DNA of 64,000 nucleotides from Escherichia phage dhabil: sequence record MN850621.1; one strand, given 5' to 3'. Below the pieces are notes generated by a model, which did not search any database, had not been told where the DNA came from, and saw only the letters and a list, made by a program, of their open reading frames with translations. The stretch's first letter is position 1, and each line of letters starts with the position of its first letter. The translations under genes were made by a program, and so were the position numbers. Positions 37,591-52,422 of this stretch are shown here, piece after piece.

Positions 37591-39573
37591 ATGGCTTTAT
37601 TATCACCGGGCATTGAGCTCAAAGAAACGTCCGTACAGAGTACTGTCGTTCGTAACGCAACGGGTCGTGCAGCGCTGGTAGGTAAATTCCAGTGGGGCCC
37701 TGCTTTCCAGGTAACTCAGATTACTAATGAAGTTGAACTGGTTGATTTATTTGGAGGTCCTAATAACGAAGTAGCAGATTACTTTATGTCTGGTATGAAC
37801 TTCCTCCAGTATGGTAATGACCTTCGCACAGTTCGTGTTGTTAGTCGCGAATTTGCTAAAAACGCATCTCCTATCGCTGGTAACATTGAGACCACTATTA
37901 CTACGGCCGGTTCCAACTATGCAGTAGGCGATAAAATCAATATTAAATATAACCAAACTGTAGTCGAATCTGAAGGTCGTGTGACTTCTGTAGATACAGA
38001 CGGTAAAATTCTTTCCGTGTTTATTCCGTCAGCAAAAATTATTGCTTATGCACGTTCTTTAAACCAGTATCCTACCCTTGGCCCAGCTTGGACCGCTGAA
38101 GTTACTTCTGCATCTTCCGGTGTTTCTGGTACTATTACCGTAGGTAAAATTGTTACGGATTCCGGTATTCTTTTGACTGAAGCAGAGAATAGTGAAGAAG
38201 CTATTACTTCTCTTGAATTCCAAGCTTCTCTTAAGAAATTTGCTATGCCAGGCGTAGTGGCTCTTTATCCTGGTGAAATTGGTTCTACTCTGGAAGTAGA
38301 AATCGTTTCCAAAGCCGCTTATGATGCTGGTTCTTCTAAAATGCTGGATATTTATCCTGGCGGCGGTACCCGTGCTTCTATTGCCAAGGCAGTATTTAAT
38401 TACGGACCACAAACAGATGACCAATACGCAATTATTGTTCGTCGCGATGGCGCTATCGTAGAATCTGTCGTACTTTCTACCAAAGAAGGTGAAAAAGACG
38501 TTTACGGTAATAACATTTATCTTGACGACTATTTCGCTAAAGGTACTTCCAACTATATTTTTGCTACCTCTTTGAACTGGCCTAAAGGCTTCAGCGGTAT
38601 CATTAATCTGATGGGCGGTGTTTCTGCTAACGATAAAGTTACTGCAGGCGATTTGATGCAAGGTTGGGATTTGTTTGCCGATCGTGAAGCACTCCATATT
38701 AACCTGCTTATTGCCGGTGCTGTTGCTGGTGAAGGCGACGAAGTGGCTTCTACTGTTCAGAAACACGTTGTGAGTATTGCTGATGAACGTCAGGATTGCT
38801 TAGCATTTATTTCTCCTCCTAAAGGACTGTTGGTTAACGTTCCACTGACTCGTGCAGTAGATAACCTTATTGACTGGCGTACCGGTGCTGGTAATTTCGA
38901 TGCCAACAACATGAACATCAGTACCACTTATGCTGCTATTGATGGTAACTATAAATATCAGTATGACAAATATAATGACGTAAACCGTTGGGTACCACTG
39001 GCTGCTGATATGGCTGGTTTGTGTGCACGTACTGATGATGTGTCTCAGCCTTGGATGTCTCCTGCTGGTTATAACCGTGGTCAGATTCTTAACGTTCTGA
39101 AATTGGCAATTGAACCACGCCAAGCACAACGCGACCGCATGTACCAGGAAGCTATTAACCCAGTTGTTGGTTTTGCTGGTGGTGATGGTTTCGTATTGTT
39201 TGGTGATAAGACTGCAACTAAAGTTCCATCTCCGATGGACCACATTAACGTTCGCCGTCTGTTCAACATGCTTAAGAAAAATATCGGTGATGCCTCTAAA
39301 TATAAACTGTTTGAATTGAACGATAACTTCACTCGTTCAAGCTTCCGTATGGAAGTTTCTCAGTACTTAGATGGTATTAAGGCACTTGGTGGGATTTATG
39401 AAGGACGTGTGGTTTGTGATACTACAGTGAACACCCCTGCGGTTATCGACCGTAACGAGTTTATTGCTAATATATACGTAAAACCTTCTCGTTCTATTAA
39501 CTACATCACGTTGAACTTCGTTGCAACGAGCACTGGTGCTGATTTTGATGAATTGATTGGACCTTTAGTATAA
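37591..39573 (+). CDS. 18: tail sheath protein gp18
   Basis: 660 aa; size and order as T4 gp18 (659 aa). Confidence 0.9.
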   Translation: MALLSPGIELKETSVQSTVVRNATGRAALVGKFQWGPAFQVTQITNEVELVDLFGGPNNEVADYFMSGMNFLQYGNDLRTVRVVSREFAKNASPIAGNIETTITTAGSNYAVGDKINIKYNQTVVESEGRVTSVDTDGKILSVFIPSAKIIAYARSLNQYPTLGPAWTAEVTSASSGVSGTITVGKIVTDSGILLTEAENSEEAITSLEFQASLKKFAMPGVVALYPGEIGSTLEVEIVSKAAYDAGSSKMLDIYPGGGTRASIAKAVFNYGPQTDDQYAIIVRRDGAIVESVVLSTKEGEKDVYGNNIYLDDYFAKGTSNYIFATSLNWPKGFSGIINLMGGVSANDKVTAGDLMQGWDLFADREALHINLLIAGAVAGEGDEVASTVQKHVVSIADERQDCLAFISPPKGLLVNVPLTRAVDNLIDWRTGAGNFDANNMNISTTYAAIDGNYKYQYDKYNDVNRWVPLAADMAGLCARTDDVSQPWMSPAGYNRGQILNVLKLAIEPRQAQRDRMYQEAINPVVGFAGGDGFVLFGDKTATKVPSPMDHINVRRLFNMLKKNIGDASKYKLFELNDNFTRSSFRMEVSQYLDGIKALGGIYEGRVVCDTTVNTPAVIDRNEFIANIYVKPSRSINYITLNFVATSTGADFDELIGPLV

Positions 39574-39697
39574 TCTATTATCCCAGGCTGTAATATAAAG
39601 AACCTAAAACCATTATACCATGGGTTTGGTTACAGCGTACATCACGTAGAATTGCGCCTGGGATTGATTAACTATCAGGAATATGATTTATCAACTG

Positions 39698-39705
39698 TTA
39701 TAAAT
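39698..39705 (+). promoter_or_regulatory. late promoter TATAAATA for gene 19
   Basis: Exact consensus within the 173-nt 18-19 intergenic region. Confidence 0.55.
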
Positions 39706-39758
39706 AAATTAATCAGAACGTTCCTGGTGTGGCCAGGAACTGACTTATGAGGCATCCC

Positions 39759-40250
39759 ATGGAGTTGACAGATATCACTCGTGCGTTTGAGTCAGGTGAC
39801 TTTGCACGCCCTAACCTTTTCGAAGTGGAAATTCCATTTCTTGGTAAAAACTTTAGCTTTAAATGTAAAGCAGCACCTATGCCGGCAGGCATTGTAGAAA
39901 AAGTACCGGTTGGCTACATGAACCGTAAAATTAACGTAGCTGGCGACCGTACGTTTGATGATTGGACTATTACCATTTATAACGATGATGCCCATGACAC
40001 CCGTCAGGCAATTGTCGATTGGCAAAACCTCTGCCACGGTATGACCAATGAAATTACCGGTGCTGCACCTGCAGAATATAAGAAACAAGCAATTGTTCGA
40101 CAGTTCCACCGTGATGGTAAGACTGTGACTAAAGAAGTTACAATTTATGGCTTATGGCCTACTAACGTTGGTGAAGTCCAGATGGATTGGGATTCAAACA
40201 ACGAGGTAGAAACTTTCGAATCTACGTTCGCTATCGATTGGTGGGAATGA
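39759..40250 (+). CDS. 19: tail tube protein gp19
   Basis: 163 aa from ATG 39759 (SD GAGG); high identity to T4 gp19 (…TRAFESGDFARPNLF.VEI…); the track ORF starts 12 nt earlier. Confidence 0.9.
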   Translation: MELTDITRAFESGDFARPNLFEVEIPFLGKNFSFKCKAAPMPAGIVEKVPVGYMNRKINVAGDRTFDDWTITIYNDDAHDTRQAIVDWQNLCHGMTNEITGAAPAEYKKQAIVRQFHRDGKTVTKEVTIYGLWPTNVGEVQMDWDSNNEVETFESTFAIDWWE

Positions 40251-40251
40251 G

Positions 40252-40259
40252 TATAAATA
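40252..40259 (+). promoter_or_regulatory. late promoter TATAAATA for gene 20, followed by hairpin aggagc-UUCG-gcuccu
   Basis: Exact consensus overlapping the gene 19 stop; hairpin at 40272-40287 in the leader. Confidence 0.55.
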
Positions 40260-40307
40260 GAATTATAAAGGAGCTTCGGCTCCTTATCCCATTCATCGGA
40301 GACTCTA

Positions 40308-41882
40308 ATGGCAAACTTTAATACAATATTAAGTTTTCTTAAGCCATGGGCTAATGAAGACGAAAAAGAATATAAACAACAATTAAATAACAATTTAGAG
40401 TCTGTCACTGCACCTAAGCTTGATGATGGCGCTCGCGAAATTGAAACCCAAGAGCAAAATATTCCTTATAATGCTCTTATGCAACAAATGTTTGGTAGTA
40501 ATGAGCCTGAAGTTAAAAACACCAGGGAACTCATTGATACCTACCGTAATTTGATGAACAACTATGAAGTCGACAATGCCGTTCAAGAAATTGTGTCTGA
40601 CGCTATTGTCTACGAGGATGATAAAGAAGTAGTTGCATTGAATTTAGACGGCACGGAATTTAGTCAATCAATTAAAGATAAAATTTTGGCTGAATTTAGT
40701 GAAGTTTTAAACCTTTTAAATTTCCAACGTAAAGGCACTGACCATTTCCAACGTTGGTATGTAGACTCGAGAATATTCTTTCATAAAATTATAAACCCTA
40801 AAAAAATGAAAGATGGCGTACAAGAGCTTCGACGCTTAGACCCGCGCCAAGTCCAATATATTCGTGAAATCGTTACACGTATGGAAGACGGCGTTAAAAT
40901 TGTAGACGGGTATCGCGAGTTTTTCGTTTACGACACAGGCCATGAAAGTTATTGCGCTGATGGACGCATTTATTCAGCCGGGACTAAAGTTAAAATTCCT
41001 CGTGCTGCCGTAGTTTATGCACATTCCGGATTATTAGATTGTTGCGGTAAAAACATCATTGGCTATTTGCAACGTGCTATTAAGCCTGCAAACCAGCTTA
41101 AATTGATGGAAGACGCAATGGTCATCTACCGTATTACACGTGCTCCTGACCGTCGTGTGTTTTATATCGATACAGGTAATATGCCTTCACGTAAGGCTGC
41201 AGCACAAATGCAACATATCATGAACACGATGAAAAACCGTGTGGTGTATGATGCTTCGACAGGTAAAATTAAAAACCAACAACATAATATGTCTATGACT
41301 GAAGACTATTGGTTGCAACGTCGTGACGGTAAAGCGGTAACAGAAGTTGATACAATGCCAGGTGCTACTGGTATGAGTGATATGGATGATGTTCTTTATT
41401 TCCGCACAGCACTTTATCGTGCACTGCGTATTCCAGAGTCACGTATCCCTAGTGAATCTAATTCAGGCGTTATGTTTGATGCCGGTACAGCAATCACTCG
41501 TGATGAGTTGAAATTTGCTAAATGGATTCGCCAGCTACAAAACAAATTTGAAGAAATTTTCCTAGACCCGTTAAAAACAAACCTCATTCTTAAAAAGATT
41601 ATTACAGAAGATGAGTGGGAAAAGGAAATAAATAATATTAAAGTTACGTTCAATCGTGATAGCTATTTCAGTGAAATGAAAGATGCGGAAATCATGGAAC
41701 GCAGAATCAATATGCTAACGATGGCTGAACCATTTATTGGTAAGTATATTTCACATCAAACGGCTATGAAAGATTTCCTTCAGATGACTGACGAAGAAAT
41801 TAATCAAGAAGCTAAGCAAATTGAAGAAGAGTCTAAAGAGGCTCGTTTCCAAAACCCAGATGAAGAAGAAGAGGATTTCTAA
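40308..41882 (+). CDS. 20: portal vertex protein gp20
   Basis: 524 aa, same length as T4 gp20; synteny. Confidence 0.9.
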
Positions 41883-49767: not shown

Positions 49768-51273
49768 ATGTCAGACAATCCATTATACGGGCATGATGGT
49801 AGAGGCCACTTTAGAGGCGTATCATTAGTAGAAGTTCCACAGAACAAATCATTGGAATTTGTGGACATACTCACTAGTGAAAGCACCTTAGACCCTACTA
49901 TGCTAGATTCTTCTCAAAGCTATGGACTTGAATTTATAAAACAAGCTTCTAGGGAAGGCGCGTTGGCCCATTTAGGTATAACTAATGAGATGCTAACACC
50001 TGGTACTGAAGGTCCACAAGGCCCTAAAGGAGACCCAGGGCCGCAAGGTATTCAAGGTAACCCCGGTCCTAAAGGAGAAAAGGGCGAACCAGGACCAGTA
50101 GGTCCAGAAGGTCCTAAAGGAGACCCGGGTTCACCAGGAAAAGAAGGCCCTCAGGGTTTACAAGGGGCCCAAGGAGAAGTAGGACCGCAAGGACCACAAG
50201 GTCCTATAGGCCCGGCAGGTTTGGTGTGGAAGGGAGCCTGGGATGAATCTACCCAATACTCTAAAGACGATGCAGTTGGATACCAGGGAGCTTCTTATTT
50301 TTGCATCAGTTCTAATACAGGAACAATACCTCCTAGCGAAGGAGTTTGGGCACTATTGGCTAATATCGGTGCACCAGGTCCTCAAGGACCAACAGGCCCA
50401 ACCGGCCCTCAAGGTCCACAAGGCGCGCCAGGCCAAGATGGTAATGGGTTTATCTGGGCCGGAAACTGGGCCCTTGGTTCGTCTTATTATATAAACGATT
50501 TGGTCCAGTGCGAAGGGTCTTCTTGGATTTGTATCCAGGATAATATAGCAAATAATGATAGTTATCCTGGGAGTGGAGACCTGTGGGCCGATTATTGGAA
50601 TTTATTTGTAAAAGAAGGGCGTCCAGGAAATCCCGGAGAAGATGGTGCACCTGGAGAGCAAGGTGCCCAAGGACCGCAAGGCGACCCAGGTCCTAAAGGT
50701 GAAAAGGGTGAACCCGGGCCACAAGGTATTCAAGGTCCTATAGGTCCTGCAGGTGCGCCAGGCAAAGATGCAGTATTTGATGTCGATTCTTTAACCCAGT
50801 CTCAATTAAAATCTTTATATGATAAACTTTTCCCATTCTATCCACCTAGATATTGGAAAGGCTCTTTAAGATTTGATAAGCCTCTGAACACTTCAGAGTG
50901 GAAGGAAATACGTTTGTGGGACCTTAATATGGTTCTTCATGTTCGCATGTACTCATCTGTAGGCATCCATATAAGGGCTACTAATGCAGGTCTTACTAAT
51001 AGGCTTGATATTAAAAGATTTACCAACTATGAAAACGGAATAGAATGTGCCAACTGGAGTAATGTGTTGTGGTCATCATCTCCTGAATTATTCGACGATT
51101 TGGCTTATTCTAGTGCAAGACAATTTAACCGTTACGAAATATTTGACCGTGATACTAGAAAATACTACACTGTATCTGTGTTTATTGTAGGCGGCCCTCT
51201 TAATACGACTACAGATATCCCTGTTGAAGTTTTATTTTCTGTCGAAGACCATACCAATATGAGCACGTTTTAA
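49768..51273 (+). CDS. collagen-like protein with two chitin-binding-type (CBM5/12-like) modules and a C-terminal globular domain
   Basis: 501 aa; three Gly-X-Y blocks (about nt 50002-50194, 50347-50424, 50623-50769) separated by W…Y…D.V.Y.G..Y.C modules; SD AGGAG. Confidence 0.8.
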
Positions 51274-52149: not shown

Positions 52150-52153
52150 TAAA

Positions 52154-52172
52154 GGGCCTACGGGCCCTTTTT
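52154..52172 (+). terminator. rho-independent terminator after the Hoc-like paralog
   Basis: Hairpin gggcc-UACG-ggccc followed by ttttt. Confidence 0.6.
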
Positions 52173-52337
52173 GGTATGTAAAATTTTATCTATAGTAGCT
52201 ATTATCCCAAAAAAGGAACTAATGCATGTGAAAAGAGCCAATATAGAAGCAAACAACCCACTAGTTAATGAAATTAACGAAAACAAAAACAGCACTATAA
52301 AGAAAACCAACAACCCTATATCTTTGTTAAATTTCAT
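52158..52337 (-). CDS. small hydrophobic membrane protein (59 aa)
   Basis: Below the track cutoff; manual translation MKFNKDIGLLVFFIVLFLFSLISLTSGLFASILALFTCISSFFGIIATIDKILHTKKGP; SD AGGTGG 4 nt upstream of ATG. Confidence 0.4.
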   Translation of the reverse strand: MKFNKDIGLLVFFIVLFLFSLISLTSGLFASILALFTCISSFFGIIATIDKILHTKKGP

Positions 52338-52404
52338 ATATCCACCTATTAAAAATTATTCGTCAATAACTTAATCTCCCGAAACATTATCATAAACTAA
52401 ATAA

Positions 52405-52418
52405 GGGCCTTGCGGCCC
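52405..52418 (-). terminator. hairpin terminator downstream of hoc
   Basis: gggcc-GCAA-ggccc followed on minus strand by ttattt. Confidence 0.45.
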
Positions 52419-52422
52419 TTTA

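Follow-up and report, generated by a model that had tools for sequence, protein, structure and literature searches.

The gap between genes 18 and 19

The window analysed here is a 64,000-nucleotide stretch of Escherichia phage dhabil (MN850621.1), a Dhakavirus, that is, a JS98-like, T4-like coliphage. In the window, the tail sheath gene (18) and the tail tube gene (19) are separated by a gap of 185 nt (39574-39758). It contains a branched fold designated E1, an exact late promoter octamer, and a hairpin designated H2 (Table 1). An earlier sequence-only reading gave the gap as 173 nt; the gene 18 stop codon at 39571-39573 and the gene 19 ATG at 39759 set it at 185 nt. That reading was right to call the gap unusually long. 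It ranks second in length among ~50 annotated gaps in 50 kb of the genome, and no gap between co-directional genes is longer. Among 62 distinct homologous 18-19 gaps from T4-like phages, which range from 24 to 204 nt, only those of Gaprivervirus (202-204 nt) exceed it.

Table 1. Features of the 18-19 gap and its borders, by position in the window.
Feature	Position	Strand	Remarks
Gene 18 (tail sheath) stop codon TAA	39571..39573	+	ORF 37591-39573; tail sheath annotation in MN850609
E1, 85-nt branched fold	39580..39664	+	MFE -28.1 kcal/mol; other T4-like phages have a simple stem-loop at the same position
P1 5' arm ATCCCAGGC	39580..39588	+	Pairs with 39656-39664; perfect 9-bp inverted repeat
P1b 5' arm GUAAU	39590..39594	+	Pairs with 39651-39655; in MFE and RNAalifold structures
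Hairpin A	39601..39631	+	Loop UAUACC 39614-39619; weak, degenerate counterpart of a strong Klebsiella Marfavirus hairpin
Hairpin B, small 4-bp stem	39635..39647	+	In MFE and consensus folds
P1b 3' arm AUUGC	39651..39655	+	In MFE and RNAalifold structures
P1 3' arm GCCTGGGAT	39656..39664	+	Pairs with 39580-39588
Spacer, unstructured	39665..39698	+	z +0.1; variable patch at ~39671-39678 with alternative haplotypes
T4-type late promoter TATAAATA	39699..39706	+	Exact octamer, 52 nt upstream of the gene 19 ATG
H2 leader hairpin GUUCCUGG(U) / (G)CCAGGAAC	39720..39740	+	~8 nt into the predicted late transcript
Gene 19 Shine-Dalgarno GAGG	39749..39752	+	6 nt upstream of the annotated ATG
Gene 19 (tail tube) start codon	39759..39761	+	Annotated in MN850609; aligns with residue 1 of gp19 homologues

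When the gap was compared by blastn with 50,697 phage records, matches were found in Dhakavirus only, with one copy per genome in 50 genomes. A single copy per genome of an optional ORF (PHROG 5104, T6 gp19.1-like) is present in 243 phage records, and its distribution within genera is sporadic. In Dhakavirus it is inserted either directly upstream of E1 (UP19, PSD9, and QL01) or just downstream of the spacer (005, Bp7, and IME540), and it also occupies the 18-19 gap in other genera. These sequences point to the 18-19 gap as a hot spot for an optional ORF that is probably mobile. No sequence match to the ORF was found in Pfam, NCBIfam, or PDB. In UP19, PSD9, and QL01, the ORF is preceded by a unit resembling a PeSL (promoter-early stem-loop) cassette, composed of GTTTAC-17 nt-TATAAT and a GCGCG hairpin. 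This unit is absent from the window.

Four CCWGG sites are found in the gap. Their clustering was rejected as a signal; the sites are arranged as two palindromic pairs, and the genome as a whole shows no avoidance of the motif (123 observed versus 61 expected).

Structures E1 and H2 and the late promoter

Both structures are more stable than shuffled sequences: E1 against a mean of -16.9 +/- 3.1 kcal/mol (z -3.66, with 0 of 200 shuffles as stable), and H2 at -14.3 against -5.7 kcal/mol (z -3.78), these z-scores being somewhat inflated by the choice of sub-window boundaries by the analyst. The majority variant of Dhakavirus has the same E1 fold (z -4.06), and the RNAalifold consensus of 13 Dhakavirus variants recovers it. 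A 47-nt stretch between E1 and H2 folds like its shuffles and is unstructured. The variable patch of the spacer reads aactatcag in one haplotype and attctttag, attctctca, or attctctt in the others.

E1 is closed by the long-range 9-bp inverted repeat that was noticed in the sequence-only reading. The repeat exists and its 3' arm was placed correctly, while its 5' arm was off by one (39580-39588). With the five further pairs of P1b, it forms a closing stem of 14 pairs across a 1-nt bulge, and the pairing probability of this stem in longer transcripts is 0.95-0.96. Taken by itself, the repeat is not significant, because 77 of 1000 dinucleotide shuffles of the gap (7.7%) hold a perfect inverted repeat of at least 9 bp. 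The earlier description of the gap as structured is thus justified for the whole fold (E1 z -3.7, H2 z -3.8), but not for the 9-bp repeat by itself.

Among the 13 Dhakavirus variants, six pairs of P1 are invariant, two change to G-U wobble only, and the terminal pair is broken in two variants. One variant loses one pair of P1b. In hairpin B, a G-U pair is replaced by G-C in 4 of the 13. Hairpin A alone (-6.3 kcal/mol, z -0.01) is no more stable than shuffles, and site 39623, which varies among three states, is bulged in the consensus fold of the genus. For E1 as a whole, 21 of 28 pairs are invariant, four show wobble-compatible changes, three include breaks, and none shows a double change. By type, three changes fall at a bulge, loop, or junction, four are G-U-compatible transitions at pairs, and two break a pair, one of them at a helix end. 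Paired positions (7 variable of 56) are not better conserved than unpaired ones (2 of 29). The shuffle control for covariation equals the observed value in the Dhakavirus alignment; since these sequences are at least 92% identical, the test within the genus is without power. E1 is kept intact in all 50 Dhakavirus records, including genomes with an ORF inserted on either side. A metagenome scan with ACCTAAAACCATTATACCATG returned two unrelated chance matches and no further E1 variants, and a pattern scan of viral contigs with CATTATACCATGNNTT gave mostly chance hits among the matches listed.

H2 was described earlier as a hairpin of seven pairs at 39721-39739. The hairpin exists, but it has eight Watson-Crick pairs and spans 39720-39740. 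Its arms are GTTCCTGG (39720-39727) and CCAGGAAC (39733-39740), and U39728-G39732 is a possible ninth pair. The pairing probability is 0.98-0.99 in every transcript context tested. In an alignment of 13 sequences drawn from several lineages of T4-like phages, 89.5% of cells are paired and five of nine pairs are changed on both sides. The covariation is 0.506 versus 0.255 for shuffles (0 of 500 reach the observed value), and slid partners give 0.165 at most. RNAalifold recovers the stem with a covariation term of -1.53. Conservation of the pairings in relatives, raised by the sequence-only reading, is therefore found for H2. H2 is a real conserved structure, and its pairs are kept by compensatory change. 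Its covariation and its tolerance of G-U fit sense-strand RNA better than a DNA cruciform. In phage ABTNLS3, the H2 loop is inverted and the stem is intact.

The late promoter is real, although it had been placed one base too early (39698-39705 instead of 39699-39706). By its sequence, it is a putative gp55-dependent late promoter of gene 19, for which activity is inferred. The octamer occurs 19 times in the window versus 8.2 expected, 14 of the 19 on the + strand, which carries the late genes, and it is invariant in all Dhakavirus genomes without a downstream ORF insertion. A 14-mer, TATAAATAAATTAA, is common to the window and the group of Yersinia phages fHe-Yen9-01, TG1, and phiR1-RT. T4 late promoters give transcripts that start about 6 nt downstream of the octamer, and the late transcript is predicted from this established spacing to start at ~39712-39713. 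A near-promoter sequence, TATAAAGA, which matches at 7/8 positions, lies at 39594-39601 and reads TATAAAGG in VR5.

There is no U-tract on the + strand 3' of E1, which is followed by UUGAUUAA, or 3' of H2, which is followed by CUGACUUAUG. The sequence after E1 is more U-rich in the majority Dhakavirus haplotype (UUGAUUAUUCUUU). A terminator scan flagged nothing on the + strand of the gap. It did report H2 as read on the - strand, a reading that was rejected, with no minus-strand genes nearby. E1 is not a compact terminator hairpin, as 67 nt, including two inner hairpins, lie within its closing stem. H2 is compact, with eight pairs (five G-C) and a 5-nt loop. Literature searches for T4 3'-end or transcript maps of the 18-19 gap gave nothing usable.

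Function of the gap and alternative explanations

In T4 and most T4-like phages, gene 18 is followed by a stem-loop and one or two late promoters, and in many cases by another stem-loop. In 52 of the 62 distinct homologous gaps, a stable hairpin starts at most 35 nt from the gene 18 stop. The octamer TATAAATA is present in 31 of the 62, and in 19 of these 31 a hairpin ends at most 3 nt from it. A predicted stem-loop with a late promoter after gene 18 is nearly universal in T4-like phages. Dhakavirus is a rearranged variant, in which the simple first hairpin has decayed and is enclosed by a long-range stem, and the promoter lies upstream of H2.

It is moderately likely that the gap is the Dhakavirus rearranged form of the ordinary T4-type 18-19 control region, acting at the level of sense-strand RNA. 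Late transcripts reading through gene 18 would fold into E1 (39580-39664), branched and closed by the 14 pairs. By analogy with the simple stem-loop of other T4-like phages, E1 is most likely a leaky attenuator and/or a 3'-end cap, and such a cap would shield gene 18 mRNA from 3'-to-5' exonucleases after termination or cleavage. Gene 19 transcription would be restarted at ~39712 by its own late promoter. H2 would begin ~8 nt into this transcript, and its most likely role is to stabilise the leader and to keep upstream sequence from interfering with the ribosome-binding site. Any termination, processing, or stabilising effect of E1 or H2 is inferred. Leader stabilisation cannot be the ancestral function of H2, since H2 is upstream of the promoter in the CC31-like phages and their neighbours, where its covariation is clearest.

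The sequence-only reading had suggested a terminator or attenuator that sets the sheath:tube ratio. An attenuator or 3'-end role of E1 is plausible from its position and by analogy, because stem-loops follow gene 18 and adjoin late promoters in T4-type gaps; neither E1 nor H2, however, is a canonical intrinsic terminator on the + strand, where the U-tract is lacking. The need to set a ratio is doubtful, because gp18 and gp19 are present in about equal numbers in the T4 tail. In reporter assays, T4-type intergenic stem-loops without canonical U-tracts strongly lowered read-through and cut reporter expression about as much as the rrnB T1 terminator (PMC2839356).

A rather unlikely alternative is that E1 is functionless debris in a gap remodelled time and again by indels and an optional mobile ORF. 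Function would then be confined to the late promoter, H2, and the ribosome-binding site, and the inverted repeats would have arisen incidentally, for instance through template-switch mutation, or have hitch-hiked. The gap is indeed mosaic. The E1 core is common to Marfavirus and the promoter-H2 module to Yersinia phages, and the 11-nt AACCATTATAC and the 13-nt TGTTATAAATAAA, adjacent in Gaprivervirus, are 77 nt apart in the window. The optional ORF at two positions flanking E1, and in the same gap in other genera, fits such remodelling, and the inverted H2 loop of ABTNLS3 indicates that template-switch events do happen in the gap. The chance-level stability of hairpin A, the chance frequency of the 9-bp repeat, and the absence of compensatory covariation in E1 (among sequences at least 92% identical) are also expected of debris. 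Judged by identities among relatives, the gap diverges at about the same rate as the flanking coding DNA. However, in both haplotypes the stability of the complete E1 fold far exceeds that of shuffles, all four transitions at its paired sites keep G-U pairing, and the sole hypervariable site is a bulge. Debris also does not account for an E1 that is intact in every Dhakavirus record, even beside an inserted ORF, at a position where structure is nearly universal in T4-like phages.

At the other extreme, E1 could be a genuine Dhakavirus-specific cis-acting RNA, a three-way junction with a 14-pair stem that functionally replaces the ancestral hairpin and is recognised by an RNase or a phage protein. 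This is considered improbable. If it were true, the recognising factor, either a phage protein or a host RNase (III or E), would generate defined 3' ends of gene 18 mRNA and uncouple the expression of sheath and tube, and the UAUACC loop, also found in Marfavirus, would be a specific contact.

There is an equally small chance that the inverted repeats act at the DNA level, as a recombination or cassette boundary or as the recognition region of a probably homing-type ORF. The single copy of the optional ORF per genome, its sporadic occurrence, and its insertion sites on both sides of E1 are compatible with this explanation, and PeSL-mediated shuffling is documented for T4-type phages (PMC2839356, PMC4122927). 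However, the nuclease nature of an ORF with no Pfam, NCBIfam, or PDB match is putative, and the insertion junctions are outside E1. E1 is single-copy per genome, unlike PeSLs, and variation in E1 and H2 that allows G-U pairing is more in keeping with RNA than with DNA.

The sequence-only reading also suggested a small RNA. The gap is an ordinary regulatory region, not a small-RNA gene, and it is very improbable that E1 is an independent small RNA gene or that a micro-peptide is encoded here. In favour of a small RNA, the E1 fold is compact and stable, and a sigma-70-like TTGATG-18-TATAAT (10/12) at 39545-39574 would place a start at about the first base of P1. This match, however, falls in the final codons of gene 18, and relatives with an unchanged E1 do not preserve it: UP19 and PSD9 have a displaced -35, and QL01 an altered -10. 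A scan of 39000-40400 against Rfam 15 with E up to 10 gave only a chance snoRNA match inside gene 18 (39031-39054, E = 7), ARAGORN found no tRNA/tmRNA-like fold in the region, and the terminator scan found no site after E1. The candidates for a micro-peptide, a 9-codon ORF from ATG 39620 to TAG 39649 and a 32-codon TTG ORF (39652-39750), were rejected, as neither has a Shine-Dalgarno sequence or is conserved. Codon 2 of the former varies (Gly, Ser, or Cys) and its Marfavirus counterpart differs by compensating indels, so the peptide is not conserved; the latter spans the variable patch and is destroyed in the 005-type variant.

It is just as hard to believe in a T4-style switch, in which read-through transcripts mask the gene 19 ribosome-binding site and late-promoter transcripts, without the 5' arm, are translated. 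Such an arrangement, with a masked ribosome site and a late promoter inside the structure, is common among the late genes of T4, such as e, soc, and I-TevI (PMC2988022, PMC3014915), and in the window the promoter, H2, and the start codon lie between the two halves of an 11-nt pair of 82% complementarity (39686-39696 with 39763-39773). This pair is weak and cannot form in 005-type variants. Unmasking by the late promoter was rejected, as the predicted accessibility is the same in both transcripts: the unpaired probabilities in read-through and late transcripts are 0.31 and 0.27 for the Shine-Dalgarno sequence and 0.75 and 0.82 for the AUG. Over all contexts (long read-through transcripts, transcripts beginning at the stop codon or past E1, and the late transcript), they are 0.27-0.32 and 0.67-0.85, and nothing is unmasked. 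A pairing of CCAUGGG (39618-24) with CCCAUGG at the gene 19 start was also rejected as a by-product of the CCATGG palindrome; it is weakened in 12 of 13 variants by A or T at 39623.

As a rearranged T4-type control region, the gap is the sort of regulatory sequence that one would expect between two late genes with high expression, and for the most part has little significance. The near-universal stem-loop with a late promoter and the covariation of H2 offer a concrete, testable element for the punctuation of the late polycistronic message. Dhakavirus indicates that parts of such a control region can be rearranged, with a branched first element and a promoter moved upstream of the second hairpin. 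As a recurrent landing site for an uncharacterised optional ORF, the gap is relevant to annotating and engineering therapeutic JS98-like phages.

Comparison with known systems

The 18-19 gap of T4 (NC_000866, 100516-100631) is bounded by the same genes. As in the window, a stem-loop begins a few bases past the gene 18 stop, followed by one or more TATAAATA promoters, a second stem-loop, and the gene 19 ribosome-binding site. The T4 gap is 116 nt long and has two simple hairpins, each with TATAAATA one base later. In the 185-nt gap of the window, by contrast, the first element is branched, 85 nt long, and closed by a long-range stem, there is only one exact TATAAATA, and the second hairpin is downstream of the promoter, hence part of the late leader.

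In Klebsiella Marfavirus (Marfa, F48, and PhiKpNIH-6), a hairpin occupies the same position after gene 18 as hairpin A. A 13-nt core, CATTATACCATGG, is common to both (E 0.02, in a small database) and makes up the loop together with the upper part of the stem. The flanking bases are similar, and the Marfavirus hairpin likewise lies inside a further stem. It is annotated as "terminator" in PhiKpNIH-6 (MN395284). With 13 perfectly matched pairs (-18.1 kcal/mol, z -6.4), the Marfavirus hairpin is strong, whereas its counterpart in the window is at chance level (-6.3 kcal/mol, z 0). The loop is UAUACU in most Marfavirus genomes and UAUACC in the window. Homology of the two closing stems was rejected, as their 3' arms are built from positions that are not homologous; that of E1 is thus a genus-specific feature.

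An H2 hairpin with the same invariant CTGG core is present in the CC31-like and neighbouring phages and in Yersinia phages fHe-Yen9-01, TG1, and phiR1-RT, and 8-10 pairs are kept by compensatory changes as in the window. The three Yersinia phages share the entire module of promoter, hairpin, and ribosome-binding site with the window. In the CC31-like phages, the hairpin abuts the promoter from upstream and is outside the late transcript, whereas in the window and the Yersinia phages it is downstream, in the leader.

In T4-type phages, PeSL cassettes bring about the shuffling of genome modules; like the gap of the window, they combine an intergenic stem-loop (attenuator), a promoter, and a ribosome-binding site, and they are associated with plasticity of gene content (PMC2839356, PMC4122927). 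PeSLs have strong sigma-70-type early promoters and are multi-copy in hyperplastic early regions (PMC2839356, PMC4122927), whereas the gap has a late promoter and is single-copy (50 genomes) in a conserved late structural block. The gap is not a PeSL by this measure: its sole sigma-70-like site matches at 10/12 positions with an 18-nt spacer, lies inside the end of gene 18, and is not conserved.

The T4 genes e, soc, and I-TevI resemble gene 19 of the window in having a late promoter within a structured intergenic region ahead of a late gene; in the window, however, the ribosome-binding site is predicted to be equally accessible in read-through and late transcripts. Stabilising 5'-proximal stem-loops are known in bacterial mRNAs, such as the ompA leader. 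Like these, H2 is a stable hairpin near the 5' end of a transcript, here a predicted one, but ~8 unpaired nt precede it, more than is usual for protection from RNase E.

Parts of the gap between genes 18 and 19

The window matches Escherichia phage dhaeg (MN850609; Straboviridae, Tevenvirinae, Dhakavirus, JS98 group) at 100% identity. The best-supported reading of the gap between gene 18 (tail sheath) and gene 19 (tail tube) is an ordinary late-gene control region acting through RNA, and the gap represents a known kind of element in a rearranged form. It contains E1, an 85-nt branched fold after the gene 18 stop, a late promoter, and a second hairpin, H2. All the features named in the sequence-only reading are present, with ATCCCAGGC and TATAAATA each placed there one base off. 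Its long gap exists as well, although the length is 185 nt by annotated boundaries, not 173 nt. The description "unusually long" is justified: of the ~50 gaps annotated across 50 kb of this genome, it is the second-longest and the longest between co-directional genes. The longest of the region (52150-52422, 273 nt) separates two convergent genes that both carry the annotation head outer capsid protein (hoc-like).

Features of the 18-19 gap of dhaeg (window positions)
Feature	Position	Sequence or property
Gene 18 (tail sheath) stop	39571-39573	TAA
18-19 gap	39574-39758	185 nt
E1	39580-39664	closing stem P1 (9 bp), then 1-nt bulge
Inverted-repeat 5' arm	39580-39588	ATCCCAGGC
P1b	39590-94 with 39651-55	5 bp
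Hairpin A	39601-31	loop UAUACC
Hairpin B	39635-47	
Inverted-repeat 3' arm	39656-39664	GCCTGGGAT
Late-promoter octamer	39699-39706	TATAAATA
H2 arms	39720-27 with 39733-40	GTTCCTGG with CCAGGAAC, 8 pairs
Gene 19 Shine-Dalgarno	39749-52	GAGG
Gene 19 (tail tube) start	39759	annotated ATG

Inside E1, TATAAAGA (39594-39601) matches the late-promoter octamer at 7/8 positions; VR5 reads TATAAAGG. It may be a decayed promoter, since its location equals that of the first TATAAATA of T4 relative to the first stem-loop. CCWGG (Dcm/EcoRII site) is observed 123 times in the whole window versus ~61 expected from base composition. At least four copies within 185 nt are found in only four places, one being the 18-19 gap and the others near 49950-50800.

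Conservation of H2 and E1

The folding energy of H2 is -14.3, versus -5.7 for shuffles (z -3.8). H2 was aligned around an invariant CTGG across Dhakavirus, Yersinia phages (fHe-Yen9-01, TG1, and phiR1-RT), and CC31-like phages and their neighbours. In the stem, 89.5% of cells are paired and both sides have changed in five of nine pairs. The covariation score is 0.506, versus 0.255 for shuffles (0/500) and at most 0.165 for slid partners, and RNAalifold agrees on the stem. The Yersinia row is one column out of register, which only lowers these figures. By eye, the Yersinia stem differs from that of dhaeg by two C-to-U changes leading to G-U pairs, while loop and flanks have diverged. On this comparative evidence H2 is a real conserved structure, and its G-U tolerance argues for action as sense-strand RNA. 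In CC31-like phages, H2 adjoins the promoter on the upstream side, whereas the H2 of dhaeg and the Yersinia phages is downstream and begins ~8 nt after the predicted late transcript start, which we take to follow the established T4 late-promoter geometry. In Salmonella phage vB_SalD_ABTNLS3, a Dhakavirus, the loop (window 39728-39732) is changed from tgtgt to acaca, its exact reverse complement, with the stem unchanged. Such an inversion is what a hairpin template-switch or loop-flip mutation leaves behind.

When the gap is shuffled by dinucleotides, 7.7% of the shuffles contain a perfect inverted repeat at least 9 bp long, and thus the 9-bp repeat alone proves nothing. The whole E1 folds at -28.1 kcal/mol versus -16.9 +/- 3.1 for shuffles (z -3.7; z -4.1 in the commoner Dhakavirus haplotype). 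P1 and H2 show pairing probabilities of 0.95-0.99 in all transcript contexts folded, and the spacer between E1 and H2 has no structure (z +0.1). At 39671-39678, a patch of the spacer differs sharply between haplotypes: dhaeg, JS98, UP19, VR5, and ESCO10 have aactatcag, and the remaining genomes attctttag, attctctca, or attctctt. The commoner ones give a more U-rich sequence 3' of E1.

The gap sequence was found only in Dhakavirus (50 records, at least 92% identity, single copy per genome). RNAalifold recovered the same fold from the 13 distinct variants of E1, in which 21 of the 28 pairs are invariant, four show only changes that create or remove a G-U pair, and three lose pairing in some genomes. 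Paired sites have undergone four transitions, each of which preserves the pair; pairing is disrupted by two changes, both transversions, one at a helix end. Only one site is hypervariable: 39623 carries G, A, or T, is paired solely in the dhaeg minimum-energy fold, and forms a bulge in the consensus of the genus. Conservation of the pairings in relatives is borne out for H2 by covariation; for E1, no compensatory double change occurs among the 13 variants, an alignment in which the test is powerless, as the shuffle control gives just the value observed. The variation of E1 is compatible with, and weakly suggests, selection on pairing. The leading alternative to a functional E1 holds that it is non-functional debris in a gap that has been remodelled many times.

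Candidate functions

On the best-supported reading, E1 would be a leaky attenuator and/or a 3'-end protector of the gene 18 message. The late promoter would serve gene 19, and H2 is a conserved hairpin that would be placed in the leader in the dhaeg lineage. T4-type stem-loops without U-tracts can cause strong attenuation in vivo (PMC2839356), and late promoters inside structured regions are commonplace in T4 (PMC2988022).

No canonical + strand terminator was found in the gap. The T4 tail requires approximately as many sheath as tube proteins, and a ratio-setting attenuator, as had been suggested, is therefore not required. The suggested small RNA is not convincing: the sole sigma-70-like match (39545-74) is within gene 18 codons and is displaced or altered in relatives keeping E1. 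A switch masking the ribosome site was rejected because Shine-Dalgarno and AUG are equally accessible in the predicted folds of read-through and late transcripts. In every transcript context, CUGACUUAUGAGG (39740-39752, with the gene 19 Shine-Dalgarno) is predicted to pair with UGAGUCAG (~39789-39797), ~30 nt inside gene 19, which would leave the Shine-Dalgarno only ~30% accessible. Also rejected were a PeSL (promoter-early stem-loop cassette), as the region is single-copy without a strong early promoter, and two mini-ORFs without ribosome-binding site or conservation; no Rfam family or tRNA-like fold was found.

Optional ORF and comparison with T4-like phages

In Klebsiella Marfavirus, the hairpin found in this place has an exact 13-nt core, CATTATACCATGG, in common with dhaeg hairpin A, and its flanks are similar. 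It folds strongly in Marfavirus (-18.1 kcal/mol, z -6.4) and carries the annotation "terminator" in PhiKpNIH-6, whereas hairpin A has chance-level stability (-6.3, z 0), and thus the stability of E1 comes from the long-range stem P1/P1b. This stem has no positional homology with the Marfavirus closing stem. In Marfavirus Clarke_MM3 and Kpn BM7 (loci L216 and L217, 23-130), a 35-codon "hypothetical protein" overlapping the gene 18 end and the terminator-like hairpin is probably an annotation artefact. In Gaprivervirus, AACCATTATAC and TGTTATAAATAAA are separated by 2 bases; the same blocks are 77 nt apart in dhaeg. The promoter-H2 module (TATAAATAAATTAA...) of dhaeg is instead common to the Yersinia phages. 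The gap of Gaprivervirus (202-204 nt; VR20, VR25, and VR7; L017 1033-1080, L019, L219) has two TATAAATA, the first in the loop of a 15-bp hairpin (CCGTAGAACCATTAT...ATAATCGGTTCTACGG), and transcripts from it would lose the 5' arm. Matches between genera are short (E 0.005-0.34, small database), and it is likely but not proven that the gap is a mosaic.

The traffic of an optional ORF is a ready explanation for a mosaic gap. An extra ORF of 190-230 codons is present in the 18-19 gap of several genomes (L001 1775-2651 in UP19, L002 1775-2666 in PSD9, L005, L006, L011, L018, L026, L030, and L037). In UP19, PSD9, QL01, and UGJNEcP3, it follows the gene 18 stop on the 5' side of E1, with an early-promoter-like GTTTAC-17 nt-TATAAT and a GCGCG hairpin ahead of it. 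This upstream-type insertion carries a PeSL-like unit (L001 1778-1830; equivalents in L002 and L005), with the promoter overlapping the GCGCGTATACACAATACGCGC hairpin, and this early-type cassette is inside the late structural gene block. In 005, Bp7, and IME540, the ORF replaces the promoter-H2 module 3' of the spacer and carries its own hairpin and TATAAATA. The insertion points, window 39573/39574 and ~39698/39699, flank E1 within Dhakavirus. Related ORFs are in the same gap of other genera and T6 (named gp19.1 in the VR7 annotation). The whole set falls in PHROG 5104, an uncharacterised family (243 phage records, once per genome), with no matches in Pfam, NCBIfam, or PDB sequence searches. 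The sporadic distribution and a DH...N...N motif permit a guess that the ORF might be a free-standing homing nuclease.

For 79 fetched loci around gp19 homologues, as well as T4, the gene 18 stop was located and every gap was read. A stable hairpin starts at most 35 nt from the gene 18 stop in 52 of 62 distinct gaps, and a hairpin ends within 3 nt of TATAAATA in 19 of the 31 gaps with an exact copy. The T4 gap (116 nt) has two units: GGCCTG-tttcgg-CAGGCC, one base, TATAAATA, and ~30 nt; then CCCTA-ggttaaaca-TAGGG, one base, TATAAATA, and the ribosome-binding site. These observations indicate an ancestral layout of stem-loop, late promoter, often a second stem-loop and promoter, and ribosome-binding site. 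E1 is a lineage-specific elaboration of the first element, and the dhaeg gap, as judged from sequence comparison, is composed of ancestral T4-like parts, rearranged.
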